A stretch of DNA of 15,799 bases from positions 1 through 15,799 of the forward strand of contig JBDRBF010000058.1 of assembly GCA_043822925.1 (NCBI GenBank), in the 5' to 3' direction. Positions 48 to 15,679 of this stretch are shown here, one piece after another. The notes under the pieces were generated by a model that searched no databases, had not been told where the DNA came from, and saw only the letters and a list, made by a program, of their open reading frames with translations. Position 1 is the stretch's first letter, and the number at the start of each line of letters is the position of its first letter. A program made the translations under genes and the position numbers. This DNA comes from a bacterium (lineage in GTDB: Bacteria > Babelota > Babeliae > Babelales > RVW-14).

Positions 48-866
48 TTACAGGCCACCAATAGCATTATAAATCCAGTCAGGAAGCAAATATATCAACC
101 AAGCAGCAAATTGCCAGCGCTTAGTAATATACGCAGTCTTCTTTTTCTCTTTAATCGCCTCATAAATCTGCTTGGCAGCTTCTTGAGCCGTTGCTATCCA
201 GTACGCATCCGGTGACTTATGCAGGTCTACCGCTTCAACTTCAACCCAACCAGGTATAATATCAGTAACATAAATTGGAATCTTTTTTTGAATCATCTGA
301 TTTCGAACGGCTTCAAGATAAATAGAAACAAAAGCTTTAGCCCCACTATAAACAGGATCGCGAGCGGTACCACGCAAGCCACTCGTCGAAGAAAAACCAA
401 CCAGATGTCCCGATTTTTGTTTTTCAAAAAAAGTAATTGCCGCATCTGACATAGTCCAAAAACCTATTAAATCAACCTCTATCGTTTTTTTATCAGCCTC
501 AAAGCATCGCTGCTGGTCAATTTTATCATTGGCTGCACTAATGCTAATAACCATTAAATCCAAACCGCCCATTTCAGATATCAACTCATGTAATTTTTGA
601 ATTGCTAATTCTGACTGAGTCACGTCTATCTGTTTTATATACGTTTTTGTTGGAATTTCTGCTTGCAGCGATTCAAGTAAATTTACCCGCCGCCCAGTCA
701 AACCAACGTCATAATCTTGGGCAAGCAATTTTGAAAGTTGCCTACCCATTCCAGAAGTTGCTCCGATTACGATCGCTTTTTTACGAATAATATTCTGCTC
801 AGGTTGGCAAAAACAAGACTGAAACCAAACACCCACAAATATAATTAATGCGATTAAAACACTCAT
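48..866 (-). CDS. Short-chain dehydrogenase/reductase (SDR) with N-terminal hydrophobic signal or anchor
   Basis: GATSGMG Rossmann motif, catalytic Ser region (FSSTSG) and YSGAK (YxxxK). ATG at 866 preferred over 893 because GAGGG lies just upstream. Confidence 0.9.
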   Translation of the reverse strand: MSVLIALIIFVGVWFQSCFCQPEQNIIRKKAIVIGATSGMGRQLSKLLAQDYDVGLTGRRVNLLESLQAEIPTKTYIKQIDVTQSELAIQKLHELISEMGGLDLMVISISAANDKIDQQRCFEADKKTIEVDLIGFWTMSDAAITFFEKQKSGHLVGFSSTSGLRGTARDPVYSGAKAFVSIYLEAVRNQMIQKKIPIYVTDIIPGWVEVEAVDLHKSPDAYWIATAQEAAKQIYEAIKEKKKTAYITKRWQFAAWLIYLLPDWIYNAIGGL

Positions 867-903
867 AACGCCCTCTTGCAAAAAAACAAACACAATCTAT
901 CGC

Positions 904-2187
904 TTAAAACCCTGCTTTAATTTTGCTAAAACAATTCAATAAATGGTCGACCTGTTCATCAGTATTTGCCGCAGTTAACGTAATGCGATGGCCTTCAGCC
1001 CCCTTTGCAACCATAGGATATGGGGAAACGGTTACCAGAATACCATCTTCAAACAACTGGTTAGCTGACGCTACCAAATCTGTATTGTTACCAATAACAA
1101 CATACACAATGGGAAACCCTGTTTGATTAAAAACTGTAAAACCAAAAGCTCTCAGGCCATTAATTGTTTTCTGAGTAAGATCCCACAATCTTTTGCGATA
1201 CAAATCTCCTCGTTTTTCGTTTATTTCTAACCCCTTAAGCAACGTCGCAAGTGACGCTGTTGGACAAGGGCCAGAAAGATCATACGGGGTGGCTACACCT
1301 TGGAGAAAATGACGCATCTTTTTTGAACAACCAATAAATGCAGCAAGTGACGAGTACGCTTTTGAGCACCCCCCAACATACAGAATATTTTCATAATCAA
1401 GCCCATAATGCTTCACAATACCGTTGCCCTTAAATCCAAGCGGCATCTCTTGTGTTGGTTTTTCGCCCACAATACCAAACCCGTGTGCATCGTCTATGTA
1501 CAAAATAGCGTCATACTTTTTAGCCAAATTAACCAACGTCGCAACATGAGCATAATCACCACTCATGCTATAAACACCATCAACCATAATAACTTTACGT
1601 GAATTCTCTTGATGTTTTATCAATAAAGCTTCAAGTGTTACAAAATCATCTTGCTTAAAACTTTCTAATTTAGCACCGCTATCGCGTGCAATTTTAGCCG
1701 CTTCATACATCGTCTCATGACCAGATTTATCCAACAACAAAACTCCCGTTTTTCCAACGAGCGCAGGCAAAACGCCAATAGAAATAAGCGTAACCGTTGG
1801 CAATATTAATGCGGCCTCTGTTCCAATAAGAGATGCAAGCTTTTCTTCAGCTTCTTGATAAATCAAAGGGCTGGCCACCAAACGGCACCAACTGGGGTGA
1901 ACACCCCATTTATTAATTTGGGAAGTAACATCTTCCTGCATTTCTGAGTCAAGATCGAGCCCTAAATAGTTGCACGAAGCAAAATCGTACACCCAATGCG
2001 TATCGCTCGTCCAAATCTTACGTCCCTCTATCTTGGTCGCAATCACATTATACTGAGACATCGCATTAAACATCTTAAAAATATGCGCGCGACGGCTTTC
2101 TTCTATGTTTACTTGTATAATTTTTTCTTCAGTACTCTGTACCAAGACATGTAGTGCCTGTTCTGAAAAATTTTCCTGATTTAACAT
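904..2187 (-). CDS. PLP-dependent alpha-oxoamine synthase (AONS/BioF-like, class II aminotransferase fold), SxtA4-like subfamily
   Basis: DFASCNYLGLD, DGVYSMSGD, DDAHGFG and SKAYSS (PLP lysine) motifs. AGGAGAG RBS at 2194-2200 on the minus strand. Confidence 0.92.
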   Translation of the reverse strand: MLNQENFSEQALHVLVQSTEEKIIQVNIEESRRAHIFKMFNAMSQYNVIATKIEGRKIWTSDTHWVYDFASCNYLGLDLDSEMQEDVTSQINKWGVHPSWCRLVASPLIYQEAEEKLASLIGTEAALILPTVTLISIGVLPALVGKTGVLLLDKSGHETMYEAAKIARDSGAKLESFKQDDFVTLEALLIKHQENSRKVIMVDGVYSMSGDYAHVATLVNLAKKYDAILYIDDAHGFGIVGEKPTQEMPLGFKGNGIVKHYGLDYENILYVGGCSKAYSSLAAFIGCSKKMRHFLQGVATPYDLSGPCPTASLATLLKGLEINEKRGDLYRKRLWDLTQKTINGLRAFGFTVFNQTGFPIVYVVIGNNTDLVASANQLFEDGILVTVSPYPMVAKGAEGHRITLTAANTDEQVDHLLNCFSKIKAGF

Positions 2188-2212
2188 TATTTTCTCTCCT
2201 ATTAACTTCTTA

Positions 2213-3025
2213 TTAAATATTTTTATTTTTTATAAAAAATTTTCTTTCACATAAACGCTGAAAACCTAATCGTTTAAACGTATTATTTGAATACGCATCT
2301 CGGTCACAATTTACTGCTATTTTAGAACAGCCCTGCTGCGCAGCAAATAACATACAAATTTGCCTCAGCCAGGTATAAATACCTTGTCGACGAAAGTCTG
2401 GGCTTGTCGCGCCTTCAGCAAAAAAAACCATATCTTGATTAAGCCCAATTAAGCCTATTGTTGCTGGAATATTATTATCTAAAGCTAAAGCGCATACGAA
2501 TTTAAGATCATGATAACGTGGATTCATGAGATTTTCTTTAAACTTTTCAAGCACCTGGCTATTTATGCCATTAACTTCAGCATCAAGCTTTAAAAATTGC
2601 TTTAATGCTCGCGAATTTGTCATAGGGTAAAATAAAAGACATTCCAGTTCTGGCTTTTGAGCCTGGAAAATTTTAATTTTTTCTGAAAGCTCTTGAAGTA
2701 CCTGTTTTTGAGTACAATCAAATGTATACCAATTTTCTTGCTCTTCTTTTACTTCAGCATACCCACGCATTATTAATATTTTTTCTAAATCTTGCGGGCT
2801 TTCTGGATCAAGATAAATCGCTGGATTTATCTTTTGTTTTTTAAAATAATTTTCTATATCGTCAAGAATCGCACCATCTATCGTATTTAATGCATGGGCG
2901 CAATTAAAATATAATCTATCAGCATTCTTAAGATGCGAAATTTGATACTCTTTGCTATCAACCAATTCATCATAATAAAGAGCATGCCAAAATTTGTTTG
3001 ACGCACGAAATAAATCAGACAACAT
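2213..3025 (-). CDS. GNAT-family N-acyltransferase
   Basis: C-terminal acyl-CoA-binding motif A (ATSPDFRRQGIY) and motif B (FKRLGF). ATG at 3025 has a GGGGAG RBS and overlaps the upstream gene end by 11 nt. Confidence 0.85.
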   Translation of the reverse strand: MLSDLFRASNKFWHALYYDELVDSKEYQISHLKNADRLYFNCAHALNTIDGAILDDIENYFKKQKINPAIYLDPESPQDLEKILIMRGYAEVKEEQENWYTFDCTQKQVLQELSEKIKIFQAQKPELECLLFYPMTNSRALKQFLKLDAEVNGINSQVLEKFKENLMNPRYHDLKFVCALALDNNIPATIGLIGLNQDMVFFAEGATSPDFRRQGIYTWLRQICMLFAAQQGCSKIAVNCDRDAYSNNTFKRLGFQRLCERKFFIKNKNI

Positions 3026-4622
3026 TCGAGCTCCCCTTCTGTTTAATGACATCAGCAAGCATTACCCGGTCAATCTTACCAGATGACGTCTTTGGCAACA
3101 CAGGATGCTGTAAAAAACCAAACGGAATCATATAATTTGGAATCTTTTCTTTCAAAAACTCAGTTAACTCATACGTGCTAATATCTGTATCACGTAACGC
3201 AGAATAAAAACAATAAAGCCTGTTCCCATATTTCTCATCAGGCAACGCGACAACACAAAATTCATCTATGCCTTTAAATTGCGCAAGCGCACTTTCTATC
3301 TCACCAAGCTCTATGCGATACCCACATACTTTTATCATGTGATCTTTTCGGCCCTTATAGTGCAAAACCCCCGCAAGATCGCGATATCCATAATCACCGG
3401 TGCGCCAGAATTTTGCAGAATAACTATGAAATGGGCTCTGCACAAAACATGCATCTGTTTTTTCTTGCATACCTAAGTACCCAAGCGTTACGGTTCCCCC
3501 ACGGCACCATAATTCACCATACTCATGTGGCTCACAAATCCGTGTACCATCTTCAGAAACAACAAGTATCTCTGTGTCATCAACTTCTGTCCCAAGAGGG
3601 ATCGACGTCATATCTTCAGGAATCTGCCCAATCCAATAACACGTTATAATATTTGTCTCAGTTGGCCCATAAATATTGGCGATTTTGGTATTAGGTAAAA
3701 TTTCTTGGAGCATACGCAATTGTGGGACCGGAAACGGCTCACCTGCGTACATGATTGTTCGTAAACACAATTTTTTATCGCGCAAATTGCCCTTATTCAT
3801 ACAAACGATATAGGTCGATGGCGTCGTGTATAAAATAGTTGCTCTTTGAGATTCTATAAGATCAACATATGCTTCGTGTTTTTTATCACCTTCTCGCTTA
3901 CTATTCCAATCATAACAAACAAGCTTTGCGCCCGCTTTAAACGTATTAAAAACATCAAAAACAGATAAATCAAATTTAAACGCAGCCCGTGACATCACAA
4001 CATCTGAACTCGTTAACTGAAATTCTTTGTGCATCCAATCAACAAACGTGCGCGCATTTCTGTGAGTAAGCATGATCCCCTTGGGGATACCCGTAGACCC
4101 AGAACTATGCAACACATACACTAAATCGTCACTCACCTGATTTATGAGCGCAGGCTCTGTATCATCTTCTTGTAATACTTGTTCAAATTTTATTATATTA
4201 TCAGGAACTTCACCGGCATAAGAATCTAAAAAAATTATCGTCTTCAAGCTCGAAATAAACAAAAGCTCTTTATATTTCTCATAAAATACTGGATCTATAA
4301 CAAGACAGTCCATACTTGTATTTGCAAGAATAAGCTTAAGTCGTTCGATAGGTGAATATTCATCAAGAGGGACATACGCACCGCCTATTTTAATAGCGCC
4401 CAAAATAGCCGCGATACTATTAATATGCACGGTCGATAGCACACCAACATATGGGTTTCGTCTTATATCTTGTTTATTTTTTTTAAATATTTGGGCGAAT
4501 CTATTTGATAAAGTATTAAGCTCTTCATACGTAACAGAACGCTTGTTTTCAAGATAAATAGCTTCATTCTTTGGATATTTTTTTACAGATTCTAAAAAAA
4601 CATCATGCAGTAAATATCTCAT
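3015..4622 (-). CDS. Stand-alone amino acid adenylation enzyme (NRPS A-domain; DltA/PltF/RedM-like)
   Basis: Core motifs: TYEEL (A1), GGAYVPLD (A2), YVLHSSGSTGIPKG (A3), FDLS (A4), NIYGPTE (A5), GELWCRG (A6), RTGD (A7), GRKDHMIKVCGYRIELGEIE (A8), LPKTSSGKIDR (A10). No C or PCP domain. Confidence 0.93.
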   Translation of the reverse strand: MRYLLHDVFLESVKKYPKNEAIYLENKRSVTYEELNTLSNRFAQIFKKNKQDIRRNPYVGVLSTVHINSIAAILGAIKIGGAYVPLDEYSPIERLKLILANTSMDCLVIDPVFYEKYKELLFISSLKTIIFLDSYAGEVPDNIIKFEQVLQEDDTEPALINQVSDDLVYVLHSSGSTGIPKGIMLTHRNARTFVDWMHKEFQLTSSDVVMSRAAFKFDLSVFDVFNTFKAGAKLVCYDWNSKREGDKKHEAYVDLIESQRATILYTTPSTYIVCMNKGNLRDKKLCLRTIMYAGEPFPVPQLRMLQEILPNTKIANIYGPTETNIITCYWIGQIPEDMTSIPLGTEVDDTEILVVSEDGTRICEPHEYGELWCRGGTVTLGYLGMQEKTDACFVQSPFHSYSAKFWRTGDYGYRDLAGVLHYKGRKDHMIKVCGYRIELGEIESALAQFKGIDEFCVVALPDEKYGNRLYCFYSALRDTDISTYELTEFLKEKIPNYMIPFGFLQHPVLPKTSSGKIDRVMLADVIKQKGSSNVV

Positions 4623-4684
4623 ACGCTCTCCATAGCAAAATAAAAAAATTTATATATTTCACGCGCACCGTATCATGCACAAAA

Positions 4685-5344
4685 TCAGGTGTAAACTATA
4701 ATTGTTTTTACAACTTTTCCACAAAACTGTTCTGCTCTCTTAAAAAATTTATTATTTTTGTAATCGATATCACCTGTATCAAGTAACGGCCTTCTGAATA
4801 CTTGGGCATCTTTACCGTAAACAAAATCAAAATAATTAAAAATAAGTTCTTCGTTTTCTTTTGTATTATTCCAATACGAAATAAATAAAACATCACCTTT
4901 TCTTATAACGTTATTAATAGCTACACCAAAGTCTTTGATATATGAAACCACGTTAAACGTAAAAACATATAACGAATTACCAACAGGAACTTCATGCTTT
5001 TCTAATGCTTCGAGCGGCTTATTAAAAATCTTAATTTTTTCATCATGAGCAATTAAACTTCGCATAGAATCATTTAAAAACTGATCAGCTATCGGGTCAA
5101 CAGCAACATAACGCCTTGCATGCTCATACCCCAACGATAAATGCAATAATGGGCCAGCTCCCACAACGATAAAATTCATGTCCTGCATAGAAGTATGATG
5201 CGCAACAAAATTATGTAATAATTGTTCTTCTTCTTTTAAATATTCATGAGTATACCCGACTGAATCAGGACAAAGCATTTTATAAAAAAACGAACGCTCT
5301 CTCATTTCATCATATTCTTTTAAAAGTTCTACATTCATGGTCAT
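4685..5344 (-). CDS. Putative SAM-dependent Rossmann-fold protein (methyltransferase-like)
   Basis: FIVVGAGP glycine loop followed by YVAVDP acidic strand-2 motif, then FTFNVVSYI and a KGD turn. ATG at 5344 has GGGAGG about 10 nt upstream, so it is preferred over 5422. Confidence 0.6.
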   Translation of the reverse strand: MTMNVELLKEYDEMRERSFFYKMLCPDSVGYTHEYLKEEEQLLHNFVAHHTSMQDMNFIVVGAGPLLHLSLGYEHARRYVAVDPIADQFLNDSMRSLIAHDEKIKIFNKPLEALEKHEVPVGNSLYVFTFNVVSYIKDFGVAINNVIRKGDVLFISYWNNTKENEELIFNYFDFVYGKDAQVFRRPLLDTGDIDYKNNKFFKRAEQFCGKVVKTIIVYT

Positions 5345-5615
5345 GAATATAATACCTCCCAATCCAAAAAATAAAGCTATCAATAACCGTTTTACACGAA
5401 CCAAATCATACAAAAAAAGCATTCTTTTTTTCTAGAAAACTAAATACTTCAAACAAATTATGCCATTTTAACGGGGCTTTTGAACCATAAAAAAATTCAC
5501 AATCTTTAACACACGAAAACTCCCGTTAAGCCCAATCAATACACGCTGTAACAAGCTTCGCTCGGCAACAGACTACTTGTTACTACCTGTAATCAGTTCA
5601 GCAAAAAAGCTCAAT

Positions 5616-5644
5616 TTGATTTTTATTTTTTCTATGCTTACACT
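5616..5644 (+). promoter_or_regulatory. Putative sigma70 promoter for the 5723 methyltransferase gene
   Basis: TTGATT (5616-5621), 17-nt spacer, TACACT (5639-5644). GAGGGA RBS precedes ATG 5723. Confidence 0.45.
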
Positions 5645-5722
5645 ACCCGAACCAAAGACCTGTTAACCCAATACGCATAACGCATTTAAAACTATCGTAC
5701 TTTATAAAACCGAGGGAACCCC

Positions 5723-6820
5723 ATGAAGTTTTATACCAATCTTTTTATTTTCTCATTACTCTTATTACTTAACATTCAAACACACGCAACAACCTCCATA
5801 AACAATTTGCAAAACCTATCAGAAGAACAATCAAAAACGTGTATAAATTTTTTTAATGCCTTTAAAAACACACAAGCCAAAAAGTTTGTAAAACAGATAA
5901 TACGTGAAAACTATTCTGCAGGGACCTGTAATTATCATCCCCAAAAAAACAACTTAGATTCTGATTCTATTAATTCGAAATGCGAAACCTTCGTTAACAC
6001 TCTTTTTTCAGAACTCACAACAATTCAAAATACCCCTGAAAAACTGTTCCCGCTCATGCAAAAAATGAGCCGCAAGACAATACCTCAAAATCCTATCTGG
6101 TTCAAAGAATTATCCCAAGCATATGAACATTATAAGCGCACATACAGAGCACAGATGGACAATGCCATTCTTTCTCCTTTTATTGCCCAAACATCTTCGC
6201 TCGTAGATATCGGCTGTGGTGGCGGCGACTTTGTTGCGTTATTAAAACAAACAAACACACAATTACAAAAAGTTGCTGGTATTGACATTTTAGACTGGAG
6301 AACTCCCGGGCTAGACATTGATTATCATGTTGTCGATTTTTCAAAAGAAGGCGCAAAATCACCTGCTCAGTATGATACCGGCCTACTCATAACCGTATTA
6401 CACCATGTCTCAGAAAATAGAGACAACATTAAGTTATTTTTAAATAATGCAAAAACAGCTGTCTCAAAAAGATTAATTGTTCTGGAAGATGTTATCGTTC
6501 AAGAACAAGATCTTGCCCATCCAAAAGTATCTCAGGCCCAAGCTTTAAACAAAAAACTAACACAGCCACATTTTTCAACATTTTTGAAATTTGATCAAGA
6601 AACACAAAAAGCCGTAATATCACTGATTGACCTGCTTGCTAATTCACTATCTGTTGGAATTCCAGAAATGCCTTTTCCCTTTGGCTTCAAACCAATAAGC
6701 GAATGGGTAAAAATTTTTAAAGAATGTAATTTTGAAATAGAACACATCGAAATCTTAGGTTTTATCGATAAAAAATTTAATCAAACAAGCCAAGCTATTT
6801 TTGTTTTAAATATATTGTAA
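5723..6820 (+). CDS. Class I SAM-dependent methyltransferase with N-terminal signal peptide
   Basis: LVDIGCGGGD motif I, AGIDI motif II, YDTGLLITVLHHV motif IV, LIVLED. Sec-type N-terminus MKFYTNLFIFSLLLLLNIQTHA. Confidence 0.85.
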   Translation: MKFYTNLFIFSLLLLLNIQTHATTSINNLQNLSEEQSKTCINFFNAFKNTQAKKFVKQIIRENYSAGTCNYHPQKNNLDSDSINSKCETFVNTLFSELTTIQNTPEKLFPLMQKMSRKTIPQNPIWFKELSQAYEHYKRTYRAQMDNAILSPFIAQTSSLVDIGCGGGDFVALLKQTNTQLQKVAGIDILDWRTPGLDIDYHVVDFSKEGAKSPAQYDTGLLITVLHHVSENRDNIKLFLNNAKTAVSKRLIVLEDVIVQEQDLAHPKVSQAQALNKKLTQPHFSTFLKFDQETQKAVISLIDLLANSLSVGIPEMPFPFGFKPISEWVKIFKECNFEIEHIEILGFIDKKFNQTSQAIFVLNIL

Positions 6821-6861: not shown

Positions 6862-7857
6862 TTACCTTAAAGCGGGCTTATACTCGAGCTCATAGCCCTT
6901 AAAAAAAACTAACTCTTCGGTAAATATGTGGGATAATGCATCTTTACAACCACGATTTAAGTAAATCTTTTTATTCCAGCCTTCTCCTCCCGCAATATAC
7001 ATTAAATCGTTAATTTTAAGATTATACCGAGGGGCAATGGGTAGCGCGATTTTTTTTGTATCTTTTTTTGTAAATATTGTCTCAAGCGCATGGACATAGT
7101 TGTTTAATCTTGCATTTTTTTCTTCTTTTATACCAGGAACAAGCGCAACATAAAGCACCATTATAGGTACCGGACAGGCTGGAACCGTTCCATCTGCGTT
7201 AAAATAATTATACCCACGCATATATTTTTTTGTTACCTTAAAACCAGTAATAAAATCAAATCGATCTTCTGAAAACATTTGTATAAAAATTCTGGTAACA
7301 CTATCACAATACTCAGGCTTAACTTGAATATGTATTTTATAGCGACATGCTAGCCCATCAATAATTTCCTGCCGAGCCAGTTTTTGTTGGTCCAGTGCAA
7401 GCTTTCCAAACACGTCAATCAGGCCATCAAATGTCCCTGCTATAGGCGCAAGCATTTTTAATTCGTCTGCCAATAACTCTTGAACTAACTTCTTTTGCTG
7501 AGCTGGTTCAGCAATTAACACATGATAATACGGATTACAAATACAACCAGAATAGCCCGCAAAAGAATATACGGAATCAGGAAAAAACTTAGATTTTTTA
7601 AAAGCAGGAACAAATCTATCCTCGTAAGCACCAATACGGTCAAAGTAAAACCACTTGGCTGATTCTCTATATTTAAAGCACCCCGTTTTATCTAAACATT
7701 CTTTAAATATGTTGGTCAATTTTTTCTCGCTCGTTTTCGTGCGAGATACCTCTGGCGTAATTTTAATCGCCCCACATAACGGCGCATGGCACACAAGTGC
7801 CATAACTAAAACAAAACAAAAAACTATATTTTTTATATTTTTATTTTTCACAAACAA
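6862..7857 (-). CDS. Secreted hypothetical protein with phosphothreonine-lyase-like (SpvC/OspF, LanL/LanKC lyase) motifs
   Basis: Long ORF with signal peptide and ordered motifs YKIHIQV, FSED, FKVT, VLYV. Overlaps the end of the upstream bla gene by 17 nt. The CDS is confident, the function is tentative. Confidence 0.6.
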   Translation of the reverse strand: MFVKNKNIKNIVFCFVLVMALVCHAPLCGAIKITPEVSRTKTSEKKLTNIFKECLDKTGCFKYRESAKWFYFDRIGAYEDRFVPAFKKSKFFPDSVYSFAGYSGCICNPYYHVLIAEPAQQKKLVQELLADELKMLAPIAGTFDGLIDVFGKLALDQQKLARQEIIDGLACRYKIHIQVKPEYCDSVTRIFIQMFSEDRFDFITGFKVTKKYMRGYNYFNADGTVPACPVPIMVLYVALVPGIKEEKNARLNNYVHALETIFTKKDTKKIALPIAPRYNLKINDLMYIAGGEGWNKKIYLNRGCKDALSHIFTEELVFFKGYELEYKPALR

Positions 7858-8656
7858 CTTTCAATTTATTTAAAGCAAACTCTTTGGCAAGCTGGCTATT
7901 CACCCGATTTTTATCAATATCGCCATATATCAAACAAACAAAAATAAGCGTTTTTTGTTCTTGCGTAACCCAGCCTACATACCAGGCAACAGATTTTAGC
8001 TCACCGTCAAAAATCCCAGCACCCGTTTTGCCGTATAACCTCCAGCCATTATCCAACAGACCAACAAACAAAAGCTTTTGCGTAAGCTCATAAGCTTGGC
8101 AAGATACCGGCAAATTAAAATTCAATAGTTTTGCTATAAATTCAATTTGCTCTGTGGGCGAAATTTTCAGGCTCGAGCACAACCAAGCTCTGTTCAAGCC
8201 ATTATTTTGCCCAAGCTCTCCAGAAACATCACCGTTACCGTAATTAAAATCACGCACATATTTTTCAAACTTTTGCATACCCAAACGTGCCGTTATTTCA
8301 CACGAATACCAAATACATGAATTTTTTATCCATAATTGCGGCGTATATGCCTGTCTCCAGAATTCAAACTCAGCGTTATATTCTTGCTTGTACGGCAATT
8401 CCGGCTCACGCTCGTTTTTCAATATTCCAGCATCACAACCCATTAAGCTTAATGCTATCTTAAACGTTGAACACGGGGTTTGCCGCGTATCACAATCGCC
8501 CTCTTTTGCAATTATATCTCCAGACACGATATCTTTTACGATAAAGCACATCGAGCTAGGCATTACGCTTTTTTGCGCATTATCTTGCCAAAAGCAGGCG
8601 CTCAAACAAATTAATAAACTTATACACGCACCAAATAATATAGAGCGTAAAGTCAT
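7841..8656 (-). CDS. blaOXA: Class D (OXA-type) beta-lactamase family protein, possible lipoprotein
   Basis: PCSTFK (SxxK), SCIW (SxV-like), YGN, AWLCSSLKISP, KTG and WYVGWV motifs. LSAC lipobox-like signal. Confidence 0.9.
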   Translation of the reverse strand: MTLRSILFGACISLLICLSACFWQDNAQKSVMPSSMCFIVKDIVSGDIIAKEGDCDTRQTPCSTFKIALSLMGCDAGILKNEREPELPYKQEYNAEFEFWRQAYTPQLWIKNSCIWYSCEITARLGMQKFEKYVRDFNYGNGDVSGELGQNNGLNRAWLCSSLKISPTEQIEFIAKLLNFNLPVSCQAYELTQKLLFVGLLDNGWRLYGKTGAGIFDGELKSVAWYVGWVTQEQKTLIFVCLIYGDIDKNRVNSQLAKEFALNKLKVVCEK

Positions 8657-8676
8657 AACATCACCGCTGCCCCTTT

Positions 8677-8704
8677 GTCATCCCAGACTTGATCTGGGAT
8701 CCAG
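8677..8704. repeat. REP/RPE-like palindromic element (single copy in window)
   Basis: GTC-ATCCCAGA-CTTGA-TCTGGGAT-CCAG: perfect 8-bp stem with a 5-nt loop and the GTCAT...ATCCAG flanks typical of dispersed bacterial palindromic repeats. Confidence 0.65.
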
Positions 8705-8900
8705 GTCCTTTATGAGTTTAGCCGAATAAATAAAACGTTTTGCCAGTATATTACAGAAAATAATCTTCTCAGGAAACATAAATAAACAAAAACAGACTTT
8801 TGTACCAATAAAAAAACACAAAAATAAGATTTTACTCAATTTTAACGTTTTTTATGATAGCCTACTTATATCAATCTATTTGAAATTGGGATGCAAAATT

Positions 8901-9143
8901 ATGAGTCCAACGGTTTTTAGATATAAAAAATATCGATTTTTCTTCTTTTCTCGTGAAGAAGACAGGATACACATCCATGTCGCATCACCTGACGGGGAAG
9001 CAAAATTTTGGATCGAGCCGCTTGTGGCGCTTGCAGATTATCATGGACTCTCTGAGCGTCAACTAAGAGAGCTTGAAAAGGTAGTAAAAAATCATGCCAA
9101 AGAAATCACAGAAGCCTGGAAAAAGCACGGTCACTCCAGTTGA
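8901..9143 (+). CDS. DUF4160 domain protein (putative toxin of a DUF4160/DUF2442 pair)
   Basis: MSPTVFRYKKYRFFFFSREEDRIHIHV...GEAKFWIEP...EAW signature. ATG at 8901. Confidence 0.88.
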   Translation: MSPTVFRYKKYRFFFFSREEDRIHIHVASPDGEAKFWIEPLVALADYHGLSERQLRELEKVVKNHAKEITEAWKKHGHSS

Positions 9144-9363
9144 GATAAATATTATTTCTAAAGAAGGATTTTGGATTTCTGTTCATAAACAGGAATATTT
9201 TCTTCCATTCTCAGAATATCCATGGTTTCGCAAAGCAACGATTGAACAAATCTATGAATTACAACTGCTTCATGAAAAACATCTTTATTGGCCAACATTA
9301 GATGTTGACCTTGAAGTAAGTTCTCTCAAAAACCCAGAAGCCTACCCACTAAAATTCTCATAA
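9094..9363 (+). CDS. DUF2442 domain protein (putative antitoxin)
   Basis: EYFLPFSEYPWFRKAT...LYWPTLDVDL...PEAYPL signature. Overlaps the DUF4160 gene by 50 nt. Confidence 0.88.
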   Translation: MPKKSQKPGKSTVTPVEINIISKEGFWISVHKQEYFLPFSEYPWFRKATIEQIYELQLLHEKHLYWPTLDVDLEVSSLKNPEAYPLKFS

Positions 9364-9482
9364 ATCTTAATCTCTATGCAAAAACAGGCTTTTGGGCCAT
9401 AAAAAAACCAAACGCTCCCCATAAAAGCCCAAAAAATTACCCATATTTTAAATAGCACTTTTCTCTTTGAATAAAAAACCCA

Positions 9483-9510
9483 TTGACTTTAGCGCGCAAT
9501 TTGCTAAATT
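9483..9510 (+). promoter_or_regulatory. Putative sigma70 promoter driving the tandem-attenuator leader
   Basis: TTGACT (9483-9488), 16-nt spacer, TAAATT (9505-9510) preceded by a TGn extended -10. Confidence 0.5.
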
Positions 9511-9516
9511 TATTCT

Positions 9517-9537
9517 ATCTGATAATTAATATCAGAT
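9517..9537. promoter_or_regulatory. Inverted repeat at the predicted transcription start (operator-like or 5' hairpin)
   Basis: ATCTGATA-ATTAA-TATCAGAT: perfect 8-bp arms with a 5-nt spacer. Confidence 0.45.
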
Positions 9538-9592
9538 TAAAAGTACGCAGGAACTTAGTGGGTCTATATCGTAGGAAAAACAGGAAAGAATC

Positions 9593-9742
9593 GTGAAAAC
9601 AAGCATGAACCATATATCTGGTACACACGCAAGCACAATTGCTTCGATGAACGTCGAACAATTGAATGGCTTGCTTTTTGCTTTTTTTGGATTCTTATTA
9701 CTTATGTTTTTTACATATTTACCCAGGGTTTATGCCTATTAA
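9593..9742 (+). CDS. Leader peptide 1 (Phe/Leu-rich), putative attenuator peptide
   Basis: GTG start after AGGAAAG, with in-frame ATGs at 9605 and 9647. Sequence MKTSMNHISGTHASTIASMNVEQLNGLLFAFFGFLLLMFFTYLPRVYAY*. It has 6 Phe and 7 Leu in the distal half, and its 3' end CCCAGGG (9722-9728) is complementary to the downstream terminator arm. Confidence 0.65.
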   Translation: MKTSMNHISGTHASTIASMNVEQLNGLLFAFFGFLLLMFFTYLPRVYAY

Positions 9743-9772
9743 TTTAATATTAAAATAGTTTAAAGATACACC

Positions 9773-9807
9773 AAAGCCCCTGGGAAAAAACCAGGGGCTT
9801 TTTATTT
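9773..9807 (+). terminator. Intrinsic terminator of attenuator 1
   Basis: AAAGCCCCTGG / CCAGGGGCTTT 11-bp stem, 7-nt loop, TTTTTATTT tail. Confidence 0.88.
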
Positions 9808-9851
9808 AATCAGATTTTAAAGTACTTAGATTTTAAAAACGAAAGATTTAT

Positions 9852-9932
9852 ATGATGCACTCAATAGTTTCAAATTTAGCTTTAGCCCTTTTATCTGGTT
9901 TATTAACAACCAGAGGAGACCCCGCTTTGTAG
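9852..9932 (+). CDS. Leader peptide 2 (Leu-rich), putative attenuator peptide
   Basis: MMHSIVSNLALALLSGLLTTRGDPAL*: 7 Leu plus Ile and Val in 26 aa, with GAAAG upstream. Contains a 1:2 hairpin (TCTGGTT 9894-9900 / AACCAGA 9908-9914) and antiterminator segment CCAGAGG (9910-9916). Confidence 0.78.
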   Translation: MMHSIVSNLALALLSGLLTTRGDPAL

Positions 9933-9965
9933 CTACAAAATATAAAAATATAGTAGCCCAATAGT

Positions 9966-10002
9966 AAGGCCCTCTGGATAAAACCAGGGGGCCTTTTTTT
10001 TT
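9966..10002 (+). terminator. Intrinsic terminator of attenuator 2
   Basis: AAGGCCCTCTGG / CCAGGGGGCCTT 12-bp stem (one G-U), 6-nt loop, run of 9 T (9994-10002). Confidence 0.92.
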
Positions 10003-10132
10003 ACTCTTTTTTAATTTTTAAATCGAAAGGCTTTTTATGAAGAAATAAAACGCATGAACACGTAAAGAAAACTCGTACATGTAACGTAAAAAAACAGAAC
10101 TAAATTAATGGAACTAAACTATAGGAAATAAA

Positions 10133-11275
10133 ATGAACATACAGAAAAAATACAGATTCATATTTTTGTTAAGCATGGCCCTTGGCGCCAATTGTTGGTG
10201 CATGAAAGAACAAGCATACACGGAAGAATCTGGCTATCCTGTCCAAGCAATGAAACATTATAAAAAAACATTGCCCCAAATTAATGTGCCCCAGAATGAA
10301 AGCTCACATGAAGAAATCGCAACTGAAATAGCAGAATTACTCTGTAAACTCACCGCTCAAGAGAACATATCAGGAAAAGATGTTCTTATTGATAACATTA
10401 AACAGTTTGTTCGCCAGGATAGGCGCATAAAACTTGTGCTGACAAGTTTTCCACTCAAATCATCCAACACCACGACAAAAACACTCACGGAAACTTTTGA
10501 TTTTGCTGATTATATCGGTTTGTACACGCTCAACCATATATGCAAACAAATAAAACGCATATATGACCCTGGGGCGAGAATACACATATATTCACGTGAG
10601 GTGCAAACAGACTATGCAAACAAAGTCACACAAAAATACTTTAACATAGACATATTCCCGGAAGAAGCCCGGCGGAAATATCAGCGGCGCCTGAAATTAA
10701 TTATTAAGCATTGCTTCAGTCAACACCTGGAACTTGAGACTGTTGACGAAGAAATAGCTATACAAAACTATGAGCAGGTCGCCAAGGCTTACAGTCTTGC
10801 AAGACAAGGCCAGGGCCTAAAGGATTACCTTGATAGAAAAATATTTTGGGAAGAAGATCTCTGTTGGCTTCGAGAGACCAATCCAAAAACCTACTCAAAG
10901 AGCAAAATAGAGAAGTGTGCTAAAGACATAGCCAAATGCATGATCATTGGGTCTGAAGCAATGAAGCAAACAGTAAACCAATTACTTGAGGAGAAAATGT
11001 ACATCAAGCTATCAATGCACCCGGACAACGAGGTAAACAATCACATAGGCTTTTCGCTTGTGTATGGAGCCATAGGAGCCCCTTGGCACAATGTCGTTGC
11101 TTTTGATGATGATCAACTTGTTTATGGACACCGTGATGACATAGAAAAACATGTCCAACAGAAATGTAAACTCAGCGATATGCAAGCAAAAAAAGCAACA
11201 AGCTGTTTGGTGAGAAAATGGAACCCACCAAGCTGTGAGTTTGAACTTGAATACGTAGATGTTACAAACGATTAA
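10133..11275 (+). CDS. Divergent isocyanide (isonitrile) synthase family protein (PvcA/IsnA/Dit1-like) with signal peptide
   Basis: LTSFPLKSSN (cf. LPAFPxKSPN), ICKQIKRIYDPGARIHIYS (cf. IYxPGAxIxIxSDG), IKLSMHP (cf. IRLSIHP), APWHNVV (cf. TPWHxV). AGGA RBS and hydrophobic N-terminus. Confidence 0.78.
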   Translation: MNIQKKYRFIFLLSMALGANCWCMKEQAYTEESGYPVQAMKHYKKTLPQINVPQNESSHEEIATEIAELLCKLTAQENISGKDVLIDNIKQFVRQDRRIKLVLTSFPLKSSNTTTKTLTETFDFADYIGLYTLNHICKQIKRIYDPGARIHIYSREVQTDYANKVTQKYFNIDIFPEEARRKYQRRLKLIIKHCFSQHLELETVDEEIAIQNYEQVAKAYSLARQGQGLKDYLDRKIFWEEDLCWLRETNPKTYSKSKIEKCAKDIAKCMIIGSEAMKQTVNQLLEEKMYIKLSMHPDNEVNNHIGFSLVYGAIGAPWHNVVAFDDDQLVYGHRDDIEKHVQQKCKLSDMQAKKATSCLVRKWNPPSCEFELEYVDVTND

Positions 11276-13645: not shown

Positions 13646-14926
13646 ATGAAAGTCTCATTTCTTCTCATCTAAATAATATCAGCACAAGCGGGCACTTGCC
13701 TATATGCTCATATTTTTCGATTAAAAAATAATAAAAACAAACGTGCCCTGCACGCAATCACATTTTACAGAGTGTTTCATACACCCAAAGCGTGTATACG
13801 CACGTCTAACGAAAGTACAAATATGCCTCATAAAGAAAAAATGCACCTCAGAAGAGCAACCAAGCTAAAACGTCCACAAGAACCAACACGTCCATACCCA
13901 TATCATGAAGAAGAAGTAAGCTTTGAAAATAAAACAGCAAGAATTACACTTTCTGGAACTTTAACAAAGCCAACTGGTACTGGGCCATTTCCAGCCGTTC
14001 TATTAATTGCTGGCATGGGGCCAAATGACCGCGACTACAATAACTGTAATCATAAAATATTTTTGGTACTTGCAGATCACCTGACGCGCAATAATATTGC
14101 CGTCCTGCGTTATGATAAACGGGGCACAGGCGCATCAACAGGAACATATGACACAACGATAACAAGCCAAGATTTTGCAGACGATGCACATGCTGGACTT
14201 GATTACTTAAAAACACGCCCTGACATAACACAAAATCAAATAGGCCTGATTGGACACTCTGAAGGCGGCATGATCGCATCTATGATTACTGCAAGCTCAA
14301 AAGATATTGCATTTCTCGTCATAATGGCAGGAGCAACAATAACATCTATCGATAACATCGTTGAGCAAACGGGTTTACAATTGCGCGCTGATGGTGCAAG
14401 TGATGCGCTAATTACACAAGACCGCGCGCTACGAAAACAAATTCTGACAATCGTAATACAAGAAACAAATAACGATAGCGCTCTAAAAAACATGCTTAAA
14501 ACAGTTACCAACTATTGGACAGAATTGCCTGAACCGCTCAAAAAAGAATCATCAAAACATGTATTCACTTTTACACAGGCAAGAGCTGAAACTATGATCA
14601 ATTTGTTTAATTCCCCATGGTATCGTTTTTTCCTCAATCACAATCCAATTGAAACGCTTAAAAAAATAACCATACCGGTACTTGTACTTAACGGCGACAA
14701 AGACTGGATTACGCATGCAAAAATGCTCACAACTATTAATAATACGCTCAAAGACGCTGGCAACCGTGATTATAAAACAATAGAACTACCCGATCTTAAT
14801 CATCAATTCAGAACCTGCCAAACAGGCGCAATCAAAAAATATGCTATGATCGAAGAGACGATAGCACCGGTAGTTTTAAATATAATCTCAGACTGGATCT
14901 TAGAGCGAACGATTAATAAAAAGTAA
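13646..14926 (+). pseudogene. Alpha/beta hydrolase (serine aminopeptidase/esterase-like) with an in-frame stop in the signal-peptide region. The catalytic domain ORF 13772/13822-14926 is intact.
   Basis: GHSEGG nucleophile elbow, NGDKD acid, LNH histidine, RPQEPTRPYPYHEEEV N-terminal motif. ATG 13646 (AAGGGA RBS) is in frame but interrupted by TAA at 13670-13672. Confidence 0.65.
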
Positions 14927-15007: not shown

Positions 15008-15679
15008 ATGGCATTGTTAAGGTATTTAGCTTATGGATTAAGCTTGATAACTATAATTTTTTTTATAGGAGCATGTATGAACAAATCTTCTCGATCATCT
15101 GGCACAGTGATAATAATAAACGGCCCATCTTCAGTCGGAAAATCAAGTATTATCAAAGCATTTCAAGCCAAACAAAATGCTCTGTGGCTATCAATTGGAA
15201 TAGATAATTTTTTTGTCGGTGTTTTGCCCCCAAAGTTTTATTTAGAACGTACACCAGAACATTGGCCAGTCATGCAGGGTATTGCATCAGAAGACAAAGA
15301 CGGTAAATTATTTACACTTAATATCGGCCCAGAAGGCAAAAAAGTTATTCAGGGCATGCATCGCGCAATCGCTGCATATGCACATGCCGGCAACAATGTT
15401 ATTGTTGATTACATAAAGTACGAACAAGCATGGCTACCAGATCTTCAAGATACTTTACATGATATAAACGTTATTTGGATTGGAGTTACTGCATCACTAG
15501 AAACAATACAACAACGCGAAAAAACACGTAAAACATCGCCTGAAGGGCATGCCCGCAGCCATTATCATACAGTTCACCAAGGCATAACGTATGATTTGAT
15601 GTTAAACACTGACTCTTTAACGGCTGACCAGGCTGCTGAACAAATTATTAACTTTATGACAAAACAAAAAACAAAATAA
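15008..15679 (+). CDS. Chloramphenicol phosphotransferase (CPT)-like P-loop kinase with N-terminal lipoprotein-like signal
   Basis: IIINGPSSVGKSS Walker A, GIDNF, AGNNVIVD, QREKTR lid, YDLMLNT. AGGAG RBS and FFIGAC lipobox-like motif. Confidence 0.85.
   Translation: MALLRYLAYGLSLITIIFFIGACMNKSSRSSGTVIIINGPSSVGKSSIIKAFQAKQNALWLSIGIDNFFVGVLPPKFYLERTPEHWPVMQGIASEDKDGKLFTLNIGPEGKKVIQGMHRAIAAYAHAGNNVIVDYIKYEQAWLPDLQDTLHDINVIWIGVTASLETIQQREKTRKTSPEGHARSHYHTVHQGITYDLMLNTDSLTADQAAEQIINFMTKQKTK

Follow-up and report, generated by a model that had tools for sequence, protein, structure and literature searches.

The proteins of solved structure that come closest to the first enzyme of the gene cassette reported here are the azetidine-2-carboxylate (AZE) synthases AzeJ and VioH. 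The cassette fills positions 48-5344 of a 15,799-nucleotide (nt) stretch of bacterial DNA, which is referred to as the window and which is the entire 15.8-kb contig C58 of genome G000 (1.52 Mb, 86 contigs, 92% complete); it encodes a protein with the fold of an S-adenosylmethionine (SAM)-dependent enzyme (hyp1), a stand-alone adenylation domain (A-domain), a GNAT acyltransferase, an oxoamine synthase and a short-chain dehydrogenase/reductase (SDR). Loci, genomes, contigs and proteins used for comparison carry L, G, C and P numbers. As far as the available text of Klaubert et al. 2025 (PMC11794875) goes, Phe134 and Tyr175 of AzeJ hold the amino group of SAM in a kinked, cyclisation-prone pose, Phe134 through a cation-pi contact, while Asn139 binds the carboxylate; Tyr175 is essential and Arg172 is reported to be essential. 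The signatures proposed there for AZE synthases are a 17-FY-18 gating motif, 133-PFNxxGN-139 and 172-RxxYYxxC-179, together with GxxxG instead of GxGxG at beta1.

The same text describes azeJ-like genes of clusters II and IV, some of them in Patescibacteria, that adjoin stand-alone A-domains, N-acetyltransferases, drug/metabolite transporters (DMT) and recombinases or other mobile-element genes. The cassette and its relatives share with these neighbourhoods the stand-alone A-domain, the N-acetyltransferase, the DMT transporters and the recombinases, and also a sporadic distribution that includes candidate-phyla-radiation bacteria. They differ in the oxoamine synthase, which is constant here (accompanied in the window by the SDR) and of which the available text and the Fig. 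4 legend of PMC11794875 make no mention. This kind of cassette is therefore not wholly new, similar azeJ-like neighbourhoods having been sketched earlier, and the oxoamine synthase partner adds to them. The locus had originally been predicted to encode an uncharacterised pathway. That claim holds in so far as literature searches on the gene set, on oxoamine synthases that work without a carrier and on clusters of Dependentiae turned up no characterised pathway that matches the cassette, but it has to be qualified by the survey of similar neighbourhoods in PMC11794875.

The family assignments of the original prediction (adenylation enzyme, GNAT, oxoamine synthase, SDR and SAM fold) were confirmed by Pfam, NCBIfam and a structural model. 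For hyp1, which had been described as a SAM-fold protein and is no generic methyltransferase by its relatives, a more specific placement replaces the earlier one. No Pfam or NCBIfam model matches it. Its AlphaFold2 model (mean predicted local distance difference test, pLDDT, 83.6) has the class I methyltransferase (MT1) fold and, at the N-terminus, two long helices, and MT1 with an N-terminal helical lid is also the fold of AzeJ and VioH. The top Foldseek match in the PDB is AzeJ (8ryf_B; E 1.4e-7, template modelling score 0.60). The family is small: a word-based search of 5.8 billion proteins returned five relatives, and a profile search of 1.84 billion representatives returned 121 members. 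When a 36-sequence hyp1 profile was compared with 177,635 PDB sequences, VioH (8ryg_A) was the sole match below 0.01 (E 2.8e-4). In this alignment the invariant or nearly invariant residues E39, G62, Y79, F128, F130, N131, S156 and Y171 of the family fall on identical residues of VioH; F128, F130 and N131 map onto the PFNxxGN motif of the AZE synthases, Y171 onto Tyr175 of RxxYYxxC, Y79 and D83 onto HYIGVDP and E39 onto FLEGE. The equivalents of Phe134 and Asn135 are conserved in at least 90%, or in 100%, of the 36 family members, and Y171 is invariant. The residues shared with AzeJ and VioH (F-x-F-N, the Tyr175 equivalent, Y-I-x-V-D and YLxEE) lie around the amino-acid moiety of SAM.

The weak tail of the profile search contained two proteins, P0135 and P0136, with the full published AZE-synthase signatures and three intermediates, P0131-P0133. 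Comparison of the hyp1 family with these five by hhalign gave 99.2% (E 1.2e-19, 168 columns); as a control, the ordinary class I methyltransferase from L005 gave 0.15%. Together with the VioH and AzeJ matches, this indicates that the hyp1 family is a sister clade of the AZE synthases and not a canonical member. The distance between them is beyond the reach of Pfam and probably also of the BLASTp survey described in the available text of PMC11794875. hyp1 keeps the published signatures only partly (TFNVVSY, IFNYFDFV and GAGPL in the window); the Arg172 equivalent is an arginine in several relatives, for example RKEYF in L005. On this evidence hyp1 may cyclise SAM, may act otherwise on its aminocarboxypropyl group, or may simply methylate.

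The A-domain matches AMP-binding (PF00501, 220.8 bits) and AMP-binding_C (PF13193), and with 313 bits it falls just under the cut-off of 317 for TIGR01733. Its core motifs are present when it is aligned with LgrA, including FKFDLS, which carries the aspartate that binds the alpha-amino group, and SSGKIDR, which carries the catalytic lysine. When the pocket region (residues 195-345) was compared with the PDB, two L-proline--[prolyl-carrier-protein] ligases came first (6o6e_B, 1.1e-19; 7thn_B, 2.9e-19), and the next match, at 2.6e-14, lies five orders of magnitude behind. The former of these ligases, PltF (6o6e), a type II L-prolyl-AMP ligase from pathways of the pyoluteorin/prodiginine type, is like the enzyme of the window a stand-alone A-domain of around 500-535 amino acids (aa). 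In the same alignment the ten-residue specificity code reads DLFYMAIIIK, compared to DLLYLALVCK in PltF: five of the ten positions agree, four differ conservatively by a hydrophobic residue that is as large or bulkier, and the remaining difference is Cys to Ile, so that F, M, I, I, I line the pocket where PltF has L, L, L, V, C. Among 119 homologue clusters, 109 have exactly this code and each of the other ten departs from it by a single change, which argues that the A-domain family has one substrate. From its sequence the pocket appears to be of proline type and would leave space for a ring of at most the size of proline; AZE is described in the available text of PMC11794875 as a proline mimic for nonribosomal peptide synthetase (NRPS) machinery. 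The likeness to PltF does not extend to the surrounding pathway: the cassette lacks a partner peptidyl carrier protein (PCP) and a prolyl-PCP oxidase, and its downstream enzyme is an oxoamine synthase without acyl carrier protein (ACP) domains.

This oxoamine synthase fits no curated subfamily, its scores being about half or less of every cut-off. Aminotran_1_2 recognises it with 99.6 bits. It does best on the bioF model TIGR00858 (223.6 bits, cut-off 426, of which this is about half), followed by lower values for the models of 2-amino-3-ketobutyrate CoA ligase (KBL; 173.8 vs 460) and 5-aminolevulinate synthase (123.3 vs 338), for three serine palmitoyltransferase (SPT) models (186.3 vs 640, 166 vs 500 and 122 vs 670) and for the CqsA/LqsA-type model PRK07179 (102 bits, cut-off 428). 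The oxoamine synthases of L005, L060 and L067 show the same pattern below the cut-offs. The best PDB match is a Thermus 8-amino-7-oxononanoate synthase/KBL (7poa, approximately 5e-46), with which CSKA (the Schiff-base lysine), DDAHGFG and SGHET (the stacking histidine) are in register; a cysteate acyltransferase, 28eh, matches at only 8e-29. The nearest oxoamine synthases outside the cassette are 40-45% identical and come from Actinomycetota (Solirubrobacterales, Gaiellaceae and Dactylosporangium). At all three of these outside loci (L009 6096-13731, L008 6202-12252 and L045 4907-9221) a PAS-GGDEF-EAL protein is encoded next to the relative, and a transporter of the MFS_3 family flanks it at two of the three. 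These neighbours hint that the wider clade of oxoamine synthases makes released small molecules, and the Actinomycetota loci may represent an unrecognised module of signal synthase and cyclic di-GMP.

Two described systems bear on how such an enzyme could be supplied and used. In the BioW/BioF pair, as in the BioWF fusion presented in the available part of PMC9544090, ATP-dependent activation of an acid feeds an oxoamine synthase that depends on pyridoxal 5'-phosphate (PLP) through a diffusible coenzyme A (CoA) thioester, free of any carrier protein. BioW, however, has a different fold and a dicarboxylic acid substrate, whereas the window encodes an amino-acid A-domain of the NRPS type. No biotin genes are found near the cassette. 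CqsA and LqsA are members of the oxoamine synthase family that make a small released ketone, and they resemble the cassette also in that regulators stand beside some copies of it (LuxR type, L004); here, however, there is no sensor kinase of the CqsS/LqsS type, and the A-domain and the SAM enzyme are obligate partners. A prediction of the complex between the oxoamine synthase and the A-domain gave no answer (score 0.00, mark 0.32) and so is no evidence either way.

The remaining two enzymes are less distinctive. GNAT is matched by Acetyltransf_1/10 with about 23 bits in its C-terminal third only (residues ~183-271). Its AlphaFold2 model (pLDDT 93.6) is two-lobed, and Foldseek places it beside 3frm, 4ius, VipF and the tandem GNAT of clavulanate biosynthesis, with aminoacyl transferases of the FemX/MprF type further down; most of these tandem-GNAT relatives are without known function. 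The R-x-x-G-x-Y acyl-CoA loop is conserved in the C-terminal lobe, and all Atlas neighbours are GNAT N-acetyltransferases of about 260 aa. The SDR matches adh_short (89.2 bits) and PRK08251 (127.9 bits, cut-off 253), and its translation contains the TGxxxGxG cofactor motif and YxxxK. Its residues 1-22 have a mean hydropathy of 2.24, as in a membrane-type anchor. No informative close relative was found for it.

The arrangement of these genes is not a matter of chance, since genes in the same order are met again in other genomes and contigs. Homologues of hyp1 were found in 11 distinct loci, in two of which (L062 and L065) the contig stops at the hyp1 gene. In the nine loci with room for it, an A-domain gene shares the cassette with hyp1 every time and lies directly downstream in eight, which makes hyp1 the closest genomic partner of the A-domain; L067 has the rearranged order A-GNAT-oxoamine synthase-hyp1. 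All six assessable cassettes (the window, L004, L005, L060, L067 and G029) include the oxoamine synthase, L061 having been left out of this set because it ends too early for GNAT or the oxoamine synthase to be scored; the open reading frame (ORF) that follows the A-domain there, up to the contig end, is unlike the GNAT family (hhalign 0.3%). The two-lobed GNAT is found in five of the six. The exception is L005, where a 517-aa PLP enzyme of the Cys/Met-metabolism type (4922-6475, + strand; best score 56.9 vs 501 and far under all curated cut-offs) takes its place and where an ordinary methyltransferase gene follows the oxoamine synthase gene. L005 thus combines two PLP enzymes, one of them with methionine-type chemistry, in a cassette whose starting point is a SAM enzyme. 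The SDR occurs in two of the six, the window and G029, both from the window's own family, and the G029 protein (53% identity) is its only homologue in a related cassette. The SDR is therefore accessory and stands outside the conserved core of SAM enzyme, A-domain and oxoamine synthase. Transport and regulatory genes accompany several copies: in G029/L003 and L060 the oxoamine synthase gene is followed by an MFS (major facilitator superfamily) gene, L004 and L067 have an EamA/DMT gene beside the cassette, and two genes for LuxR-type regulators bracket that of L004. In L067 a serine resolvase gene and a RhuM/Fic-domain gene (8919-10528, - strand) adjoin the rearranged cassette, with EamA upstream, which points to mobility.

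The cassette is rare in the group to which G000 belongs. The class has no more than 261 species genomes, each of them small. Of 61 genomes among relatives, two (G000 and G029) have the A-domain gene, and at E <= 1e-100 it was found in none of the 260 other genomes of the class that were searched, the copy in G029 being a contig-end fragment that falls below this threshold. G029 belongs to the same family as G000 and to a different genus, and is identical to record L003 ('uncultured Pseudomonadota') and to G063; its cassette is split over two contigs: C75 has hyp1 and the beginning of the A-domain, and C33 has the tail of GNAT, the oxoamine synthase, the MFS gene and the SDR. Further copies come from a metagenome-assembled genome labelled Gammaproteobacteria (L004 = L064), from another labelled Parcubacteria (L005, genome G061) and from five metagenome contigs. 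Within the phylum of G061 the A-domain gene is present in G061 itself and in no other of the 301 genomes. Overall the homologues of the A-domain form more than 120 clusters (58-73% identity), the few named ones being from Patescibacteria groups, and groundwater metagenomes from at least two studies contain nearly identical DNA. The GC content of the operon (37.1%) equals that of the genome (37.3%) and thus gives no compositional sign of recent transfer. Taken with the patchy occurrence, this identifies the cassette as an orphan, accessory unit that is horizontally scattered among reduced-genome lineages and was not recently acquired here.

The original prediction had noted that no ACP or PCP is encoded in the cassette, and this was upheld for the contig as a whole: a six-frame PF00550 search found no phosphopantetheine carrier on C58. 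The genome-wide search for orphan carriers and for a phosphopantetheinyl transferase (PPTase) that had been recommended was also carried out. The 1.52-Mb genome contains two PP-binding domains, one in AcpP, beside FabF on C83, and the other in an 836-aa AMP-binding-PP-PlsC fusion of lipid type on C13 (L058 6150-8660, + strand), together with one PPTase of the AcpS type. A homologous 836-aa frame of the fusion is also present in G063. In G061, which carries the cassette, the search gave no PP-binding, no ACPS-type PPTase and no CoaE match.

We tentatively favour a reading in which the cassette converts SAM to an AZE-like imino acid that is adenylated, condensed to an aminoketone, N-acetylated, reduced and released. 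By homology the SAM enzyme would convert SAM, probably derived from the host, to a small cyclic imino acid, for which AZE would be the simplest candidate, with release of methylthioadenosine. The A-domain, to judge by its amino-acid-type motifs and proline-like pocket, would adenylate this imino acid. The activated acyl group would then have to reach the oxoamine synthase without a dedicated carrier, for which a CoA thioester is the most conservative route; this shuttle is borrowed from the logic of BioW and BioF and would be the weakest step of the pathway. The oxoamine synthase could then join the acyl group to a second amino acid in a decarboxylative condensation that yields an alpha-aminoketone, a step that represents family-level chemistry and for which the catalytic residues are present. 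GNAT might N-acylate an amine of the product, or might acetylate the free imino acid as self-protection, and in this organism's family the membrane-anchored SDR would turn the ketone into an amino alcohol. The product class originally proposed, an aminoketone or amino alcohol derived from an amino acid, remains the best one. The MFS and DMT transporters and LuxR regulators of the related cassettes argue that the end product is most likely a released metabolite, a toxin or a signal, and not a membrane lipid. SAM carriers are known from rickettsiae and chlamydiae, and the DMT/EamA genes beside some cassettes could be SAM importers and not exporters.

Several observations weigh against this pathway. 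The oxoamine synthase has no named amino-acid partner, and no thiol acceptor was found for the A-domain. In G000 there is no match to the C-domain of MetK (PF02773) or to CoaE (PF01121) at 92% completeness, so that SAM, CoA or late precursors of them would have to be imported; CoaE was likewise not found in G061 and G063 (= G029), that is in three of the four cassette-bearing genomes searched. The completeness of G061 is not given, and its absence of carriers is therefore no proof. The ten specificity columns of the A-domain were placed relative to the core motifs by the Stachelhaus numbering, which we take to apply here. No RNA contig from the one metatranscriptome library bridges any gene junction, so that it is the gene spacing that argues for co-transcription. 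The remaining points concern hyp1. The glycine and carboxylate-binding asparagine of PFNxxGN are replaced in the window (Gly138 by Ser, Asn139 by Tyr), as are three residues of RxxYYxxC (Arg172 by Ile, Tyr176 by Phe, Cys179 by Val). In the profile alignment F20-Y21 is shifted by about six residues from the canonical FY, its tyrosine varies within the family, and the FY gating motif was thus not recovered. The generic methyltransferase P0134, from the tail of the profile search, reaches 87% against the hyp1 family by hhalign.

These features of hyp1 can be read another way. It is rather unlikely, but the main alternative, that hyp1 is an ordinary methyltransferase, that the A-domain activates L-proline from the host and that the product is a methylated, N-acetylated prolyl aminoketone or amino alcohol. 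The loss of the Gly138, Asn139 and Arg172 signature positions would be as expected, motif I of hyp1 is GxGxx as in methyltransferases and not the GxxxG of AzeJ, ordinary methyltransferases follow AzeJ closely in Foldseek (many within one order of magnitude), the Atlas neighbours of hyp1 are generic methyltransferase clusters, the pocket of the A-domain is closest to genuine proline ligases, and the extra methyltransferase of L005 suggests methylation in some versions of the pathway. However, hyp1 matches none of the methyltransferase families of Pfam at E 0.01, its sole significant relative by sequence among solved structures is an AZE synthase, the profile link to proteins with AZE signatures is 99.2% as against 0.15% for the ordinary methyltransferase from L005, and the tight pairing of hyp1 with the A-domain is typical of substrate suppliers. 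Furthermore, the residues that are invariant in the hyp1 family contact the amino-acid moiety of SAM in AzeJ, going by the available text of PMC11794875. A different role for the A-domain is unlikely: it would be an amide ligase that acylates the amine of the oxoamine synthase product from the imino-acyl adenylate, GNAT would cap the resulting pseudo-dipeptide, and the oxoamine synthase, together with the SDR in cassettes that have one, would use a common acyl-CoA and an amino acid. Such an A-domain would need no carrier protein, which matches the carrier searches; the available text of PMC11794875 takes stand-alone A-domains next to azeJ-like genes to be ligases that build AZE into a peptide-like metabolite, and PMC5811625 describes adenylating enzymes that form amides with free amines. 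An acyl-CoA would still be required, despite the failure to find CoaE in most of the genomes searched, and the pathway proposed above accounts just as well for the constant pairing of A-domain and oxoamine synthase. It is very unlikely that phosphopantetheine has no part at all, the A-domain passing the adenylate of a strained-ring imino acid, which a novel SAM-lyase clade would make from host SAM, directly to the oxoamine synthase. The grounds for considering this are the lack of PP-binding, PPTase and CoaE matches in G061 and of CoaE and MetK matches in G000.

The two analogies put forward with the original prediction fared less well. A lipid route akin to that of sphingolipids, ceramides or capnine, in which a serine or cysteate acyltransferase, an N-acyltransferase (GNAT), a ketoreductase (SDR) and an AMP-binding enzyme that activates a fatty acid would act together, is highly improbable. 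Bacteria that make ceramides use Spt, a ceramide synthase of the GNAT type, a reductase and an acyl-ACP synthetase, a set that the four enzyme classes of the cassette do resemble, and the hydrophobic anchor of the SDR and the 166-186 bits of the SPT models on the oxoamine synthase could be taken the same way. Every SPT model is nevertheless far below its cut-off, the AMP-binding enzyme is an amino-acid A-domain with an alpha-amino aspartate and a proline-type pocket and no fatty acyl ligase, the SDR, which had prompted the analogy, is absent from four of the six cassettes, transporters and LuxR regulators accompany the cassette, and there is no dedicated ACP, the cassette occurring even in G061, where no ACP was detected. 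The logic of sphinganine and capnine is therefore set aside. Of the prodiginine analogy, which combined A-domain, oxoamine synthase and methyltransferase, what survives is the type of the A-domain, whose pocket is closest to prolyl ligases of the PltF type. A pyrrole-type pathway as for prodiginine or pyoluteorin, in which proline, once loaded, would undergo oxidation to pyrrolyl-2-carboxylate before the oxoamine synthase extends it and the SAM enzyme O-methylates it, is extremely improbable: the contig has no PCP and the genome only AcpP and the one lipid-type fusion, no Acyl-CoA_dh_1 protein (PF00441; the family of the expected oxidase) was found in G000, and the cassette has no ketosynthase and an oxoamine synthase without fused ACP domains.

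To our knowledge, bacteria with an intracellular or cell-attached life and genomes of 1-1.5 Mb seldom carry biosynthetic cassettes, and the recurrence of this one across unrelated reduced-genome lineages suggests that its product is important for life with a host. If hyp1 is a SAM cyclase, the AZE-synthase family would be extended to a remote clade with a different signature, and a toxic proline mimic would for the first time be tied to oxoamine-synthase chemistry. The consistent absence of a carrier makes the need of NRPS-type adenylation enzymes and oxoamine synthases for a thioester carrier, a long-standing assumption, directly testable on four proteins that are small and soluble. Were direct hand-off of the adenylate to be true, it would be the first thioester-independent Claisen condensation in the oxoamine synthase family, and a route free of any thiol would amount to a self-contained four-gene path to a host-aimed, proline-mimic aminoketone in obligate intracellular and candidate-phyla-radiation bacteria. 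With a plain methyltransferase and a CoA shuttle, the cassette would be an ordinary orphan cluster of modest interest.

Table 1. Genes and other features of the window, with positions on the forward strand.
Feature	Position	Strand	Description
SAM-fold protein (hyp1)	4685-5344	-	219 aa; class I SAM-enzyme fold
Adenylation enzyme	3015-4622	-	535 aa; stand-alone NRPS-type A-domain, no thiolation (T) domain
GNAT	2213-3025	-	270 aa; two-lobed (tandem) acyltransferase; 11-nt overlap with A-domain gene
Oxoamine synthase	904-2187	-	427 aa; PLP-dependent, BioF/KBL/SPT superfamily, single domain
SDR	48-866	-	272 aa; classical SDR, N-terminal hydrophobic anchor
Promoter-like site	5457-5484	-	TTCAAA-16-CATAAT with TG; consensus match only, upstream of hyp1 gene
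Methyltransferase-domain protein	5723-6820	+	signal-peptide-like N-terminus; divergent from operon
331-aa protein	6862-7857		signal-like N-terminus, no family match
Class D (OXA-type) beta-lactamase	7841-8656	-	NF000270, 282.5 bits, cut-off 280
DIT1/PvcA-type isonitrile-synthase homologue	10133-11275	+	PF05141, 117.7 bits; hydrophobic N-terminus
EstD-like alpha/beta hydrolase	13772-14926	+	family match
Chloramphenicol-phosphotransferase-like kinase	15008-15679	+	PF07931, 123 bits

The ORF listing confirms the gene layout as originally described, with five co-oriented ORFs on the minus strand, gaps of 62, -11, 25 and 37 nt and motifs resembling ribosome-binding sites. Gene starts were chosen by the lengths of homologues and by GGAGG-type motifs, one of which lies 6-12 nt upstream of each of the five ATGs; for the start of hyp1 at 5344 the motif is GGGAGG, and homologue lengths of 210-226 aa agree. 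From the stop of the SDR to the contig end there are 47 nt, and any genes beyond lie outside view. The promoter-like site sits in the 378-nt divergent intergenic region and is weak evidence, since shuffled sequence gave more such sites in the scan. When the whole window was compared with Rfam by E-value, no riboswitch or leader was found upstream of the operon, and the window has no tRNA genes. In one groundwater metatranscriptome library, four contigs of 150-208 nt with at least 99% identity fall inside the oxoamine synthase, A-domain and 5723-6820 methyltransferase genes, which is a weak hint that the cassette is transcribed. Parts of the operon have no RNA contig and one further RNA run gave no match; no conclusion is drawn from either.

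The divergent methyltransferase-domain gene had been considered as a possible partner of the cassette and was rejected, as it has no homologue in any related locus; one of the RNA contigs lies within it, at 6099-6306. Further along the contig, the beta-lactamase gene, found here in a small genome of intracellular type, overlaps the start of the 331-aa gene by 17 nt. It is followed by about 1.5 kb (8657-10132) without an ORF of at least 90 aa, in which lies the only Rfam match of the window, a sub-threshold Phe_leader at 9690-9807 (32 vs 55 bits). The isonitrile-synthase homologue scores 62.8 on TyIsonSynPvcA, cut-off 600, and no PvcB-type partner is visible on the contig. Both the kinase and the EstD-like hydrolase have hydrophobic or extended N-termini. 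The hydrolase lies 8 kb from the cassette; alpha/beta hydrolases are often found near azeJ-like genes, according to the available text of PMC11794875.

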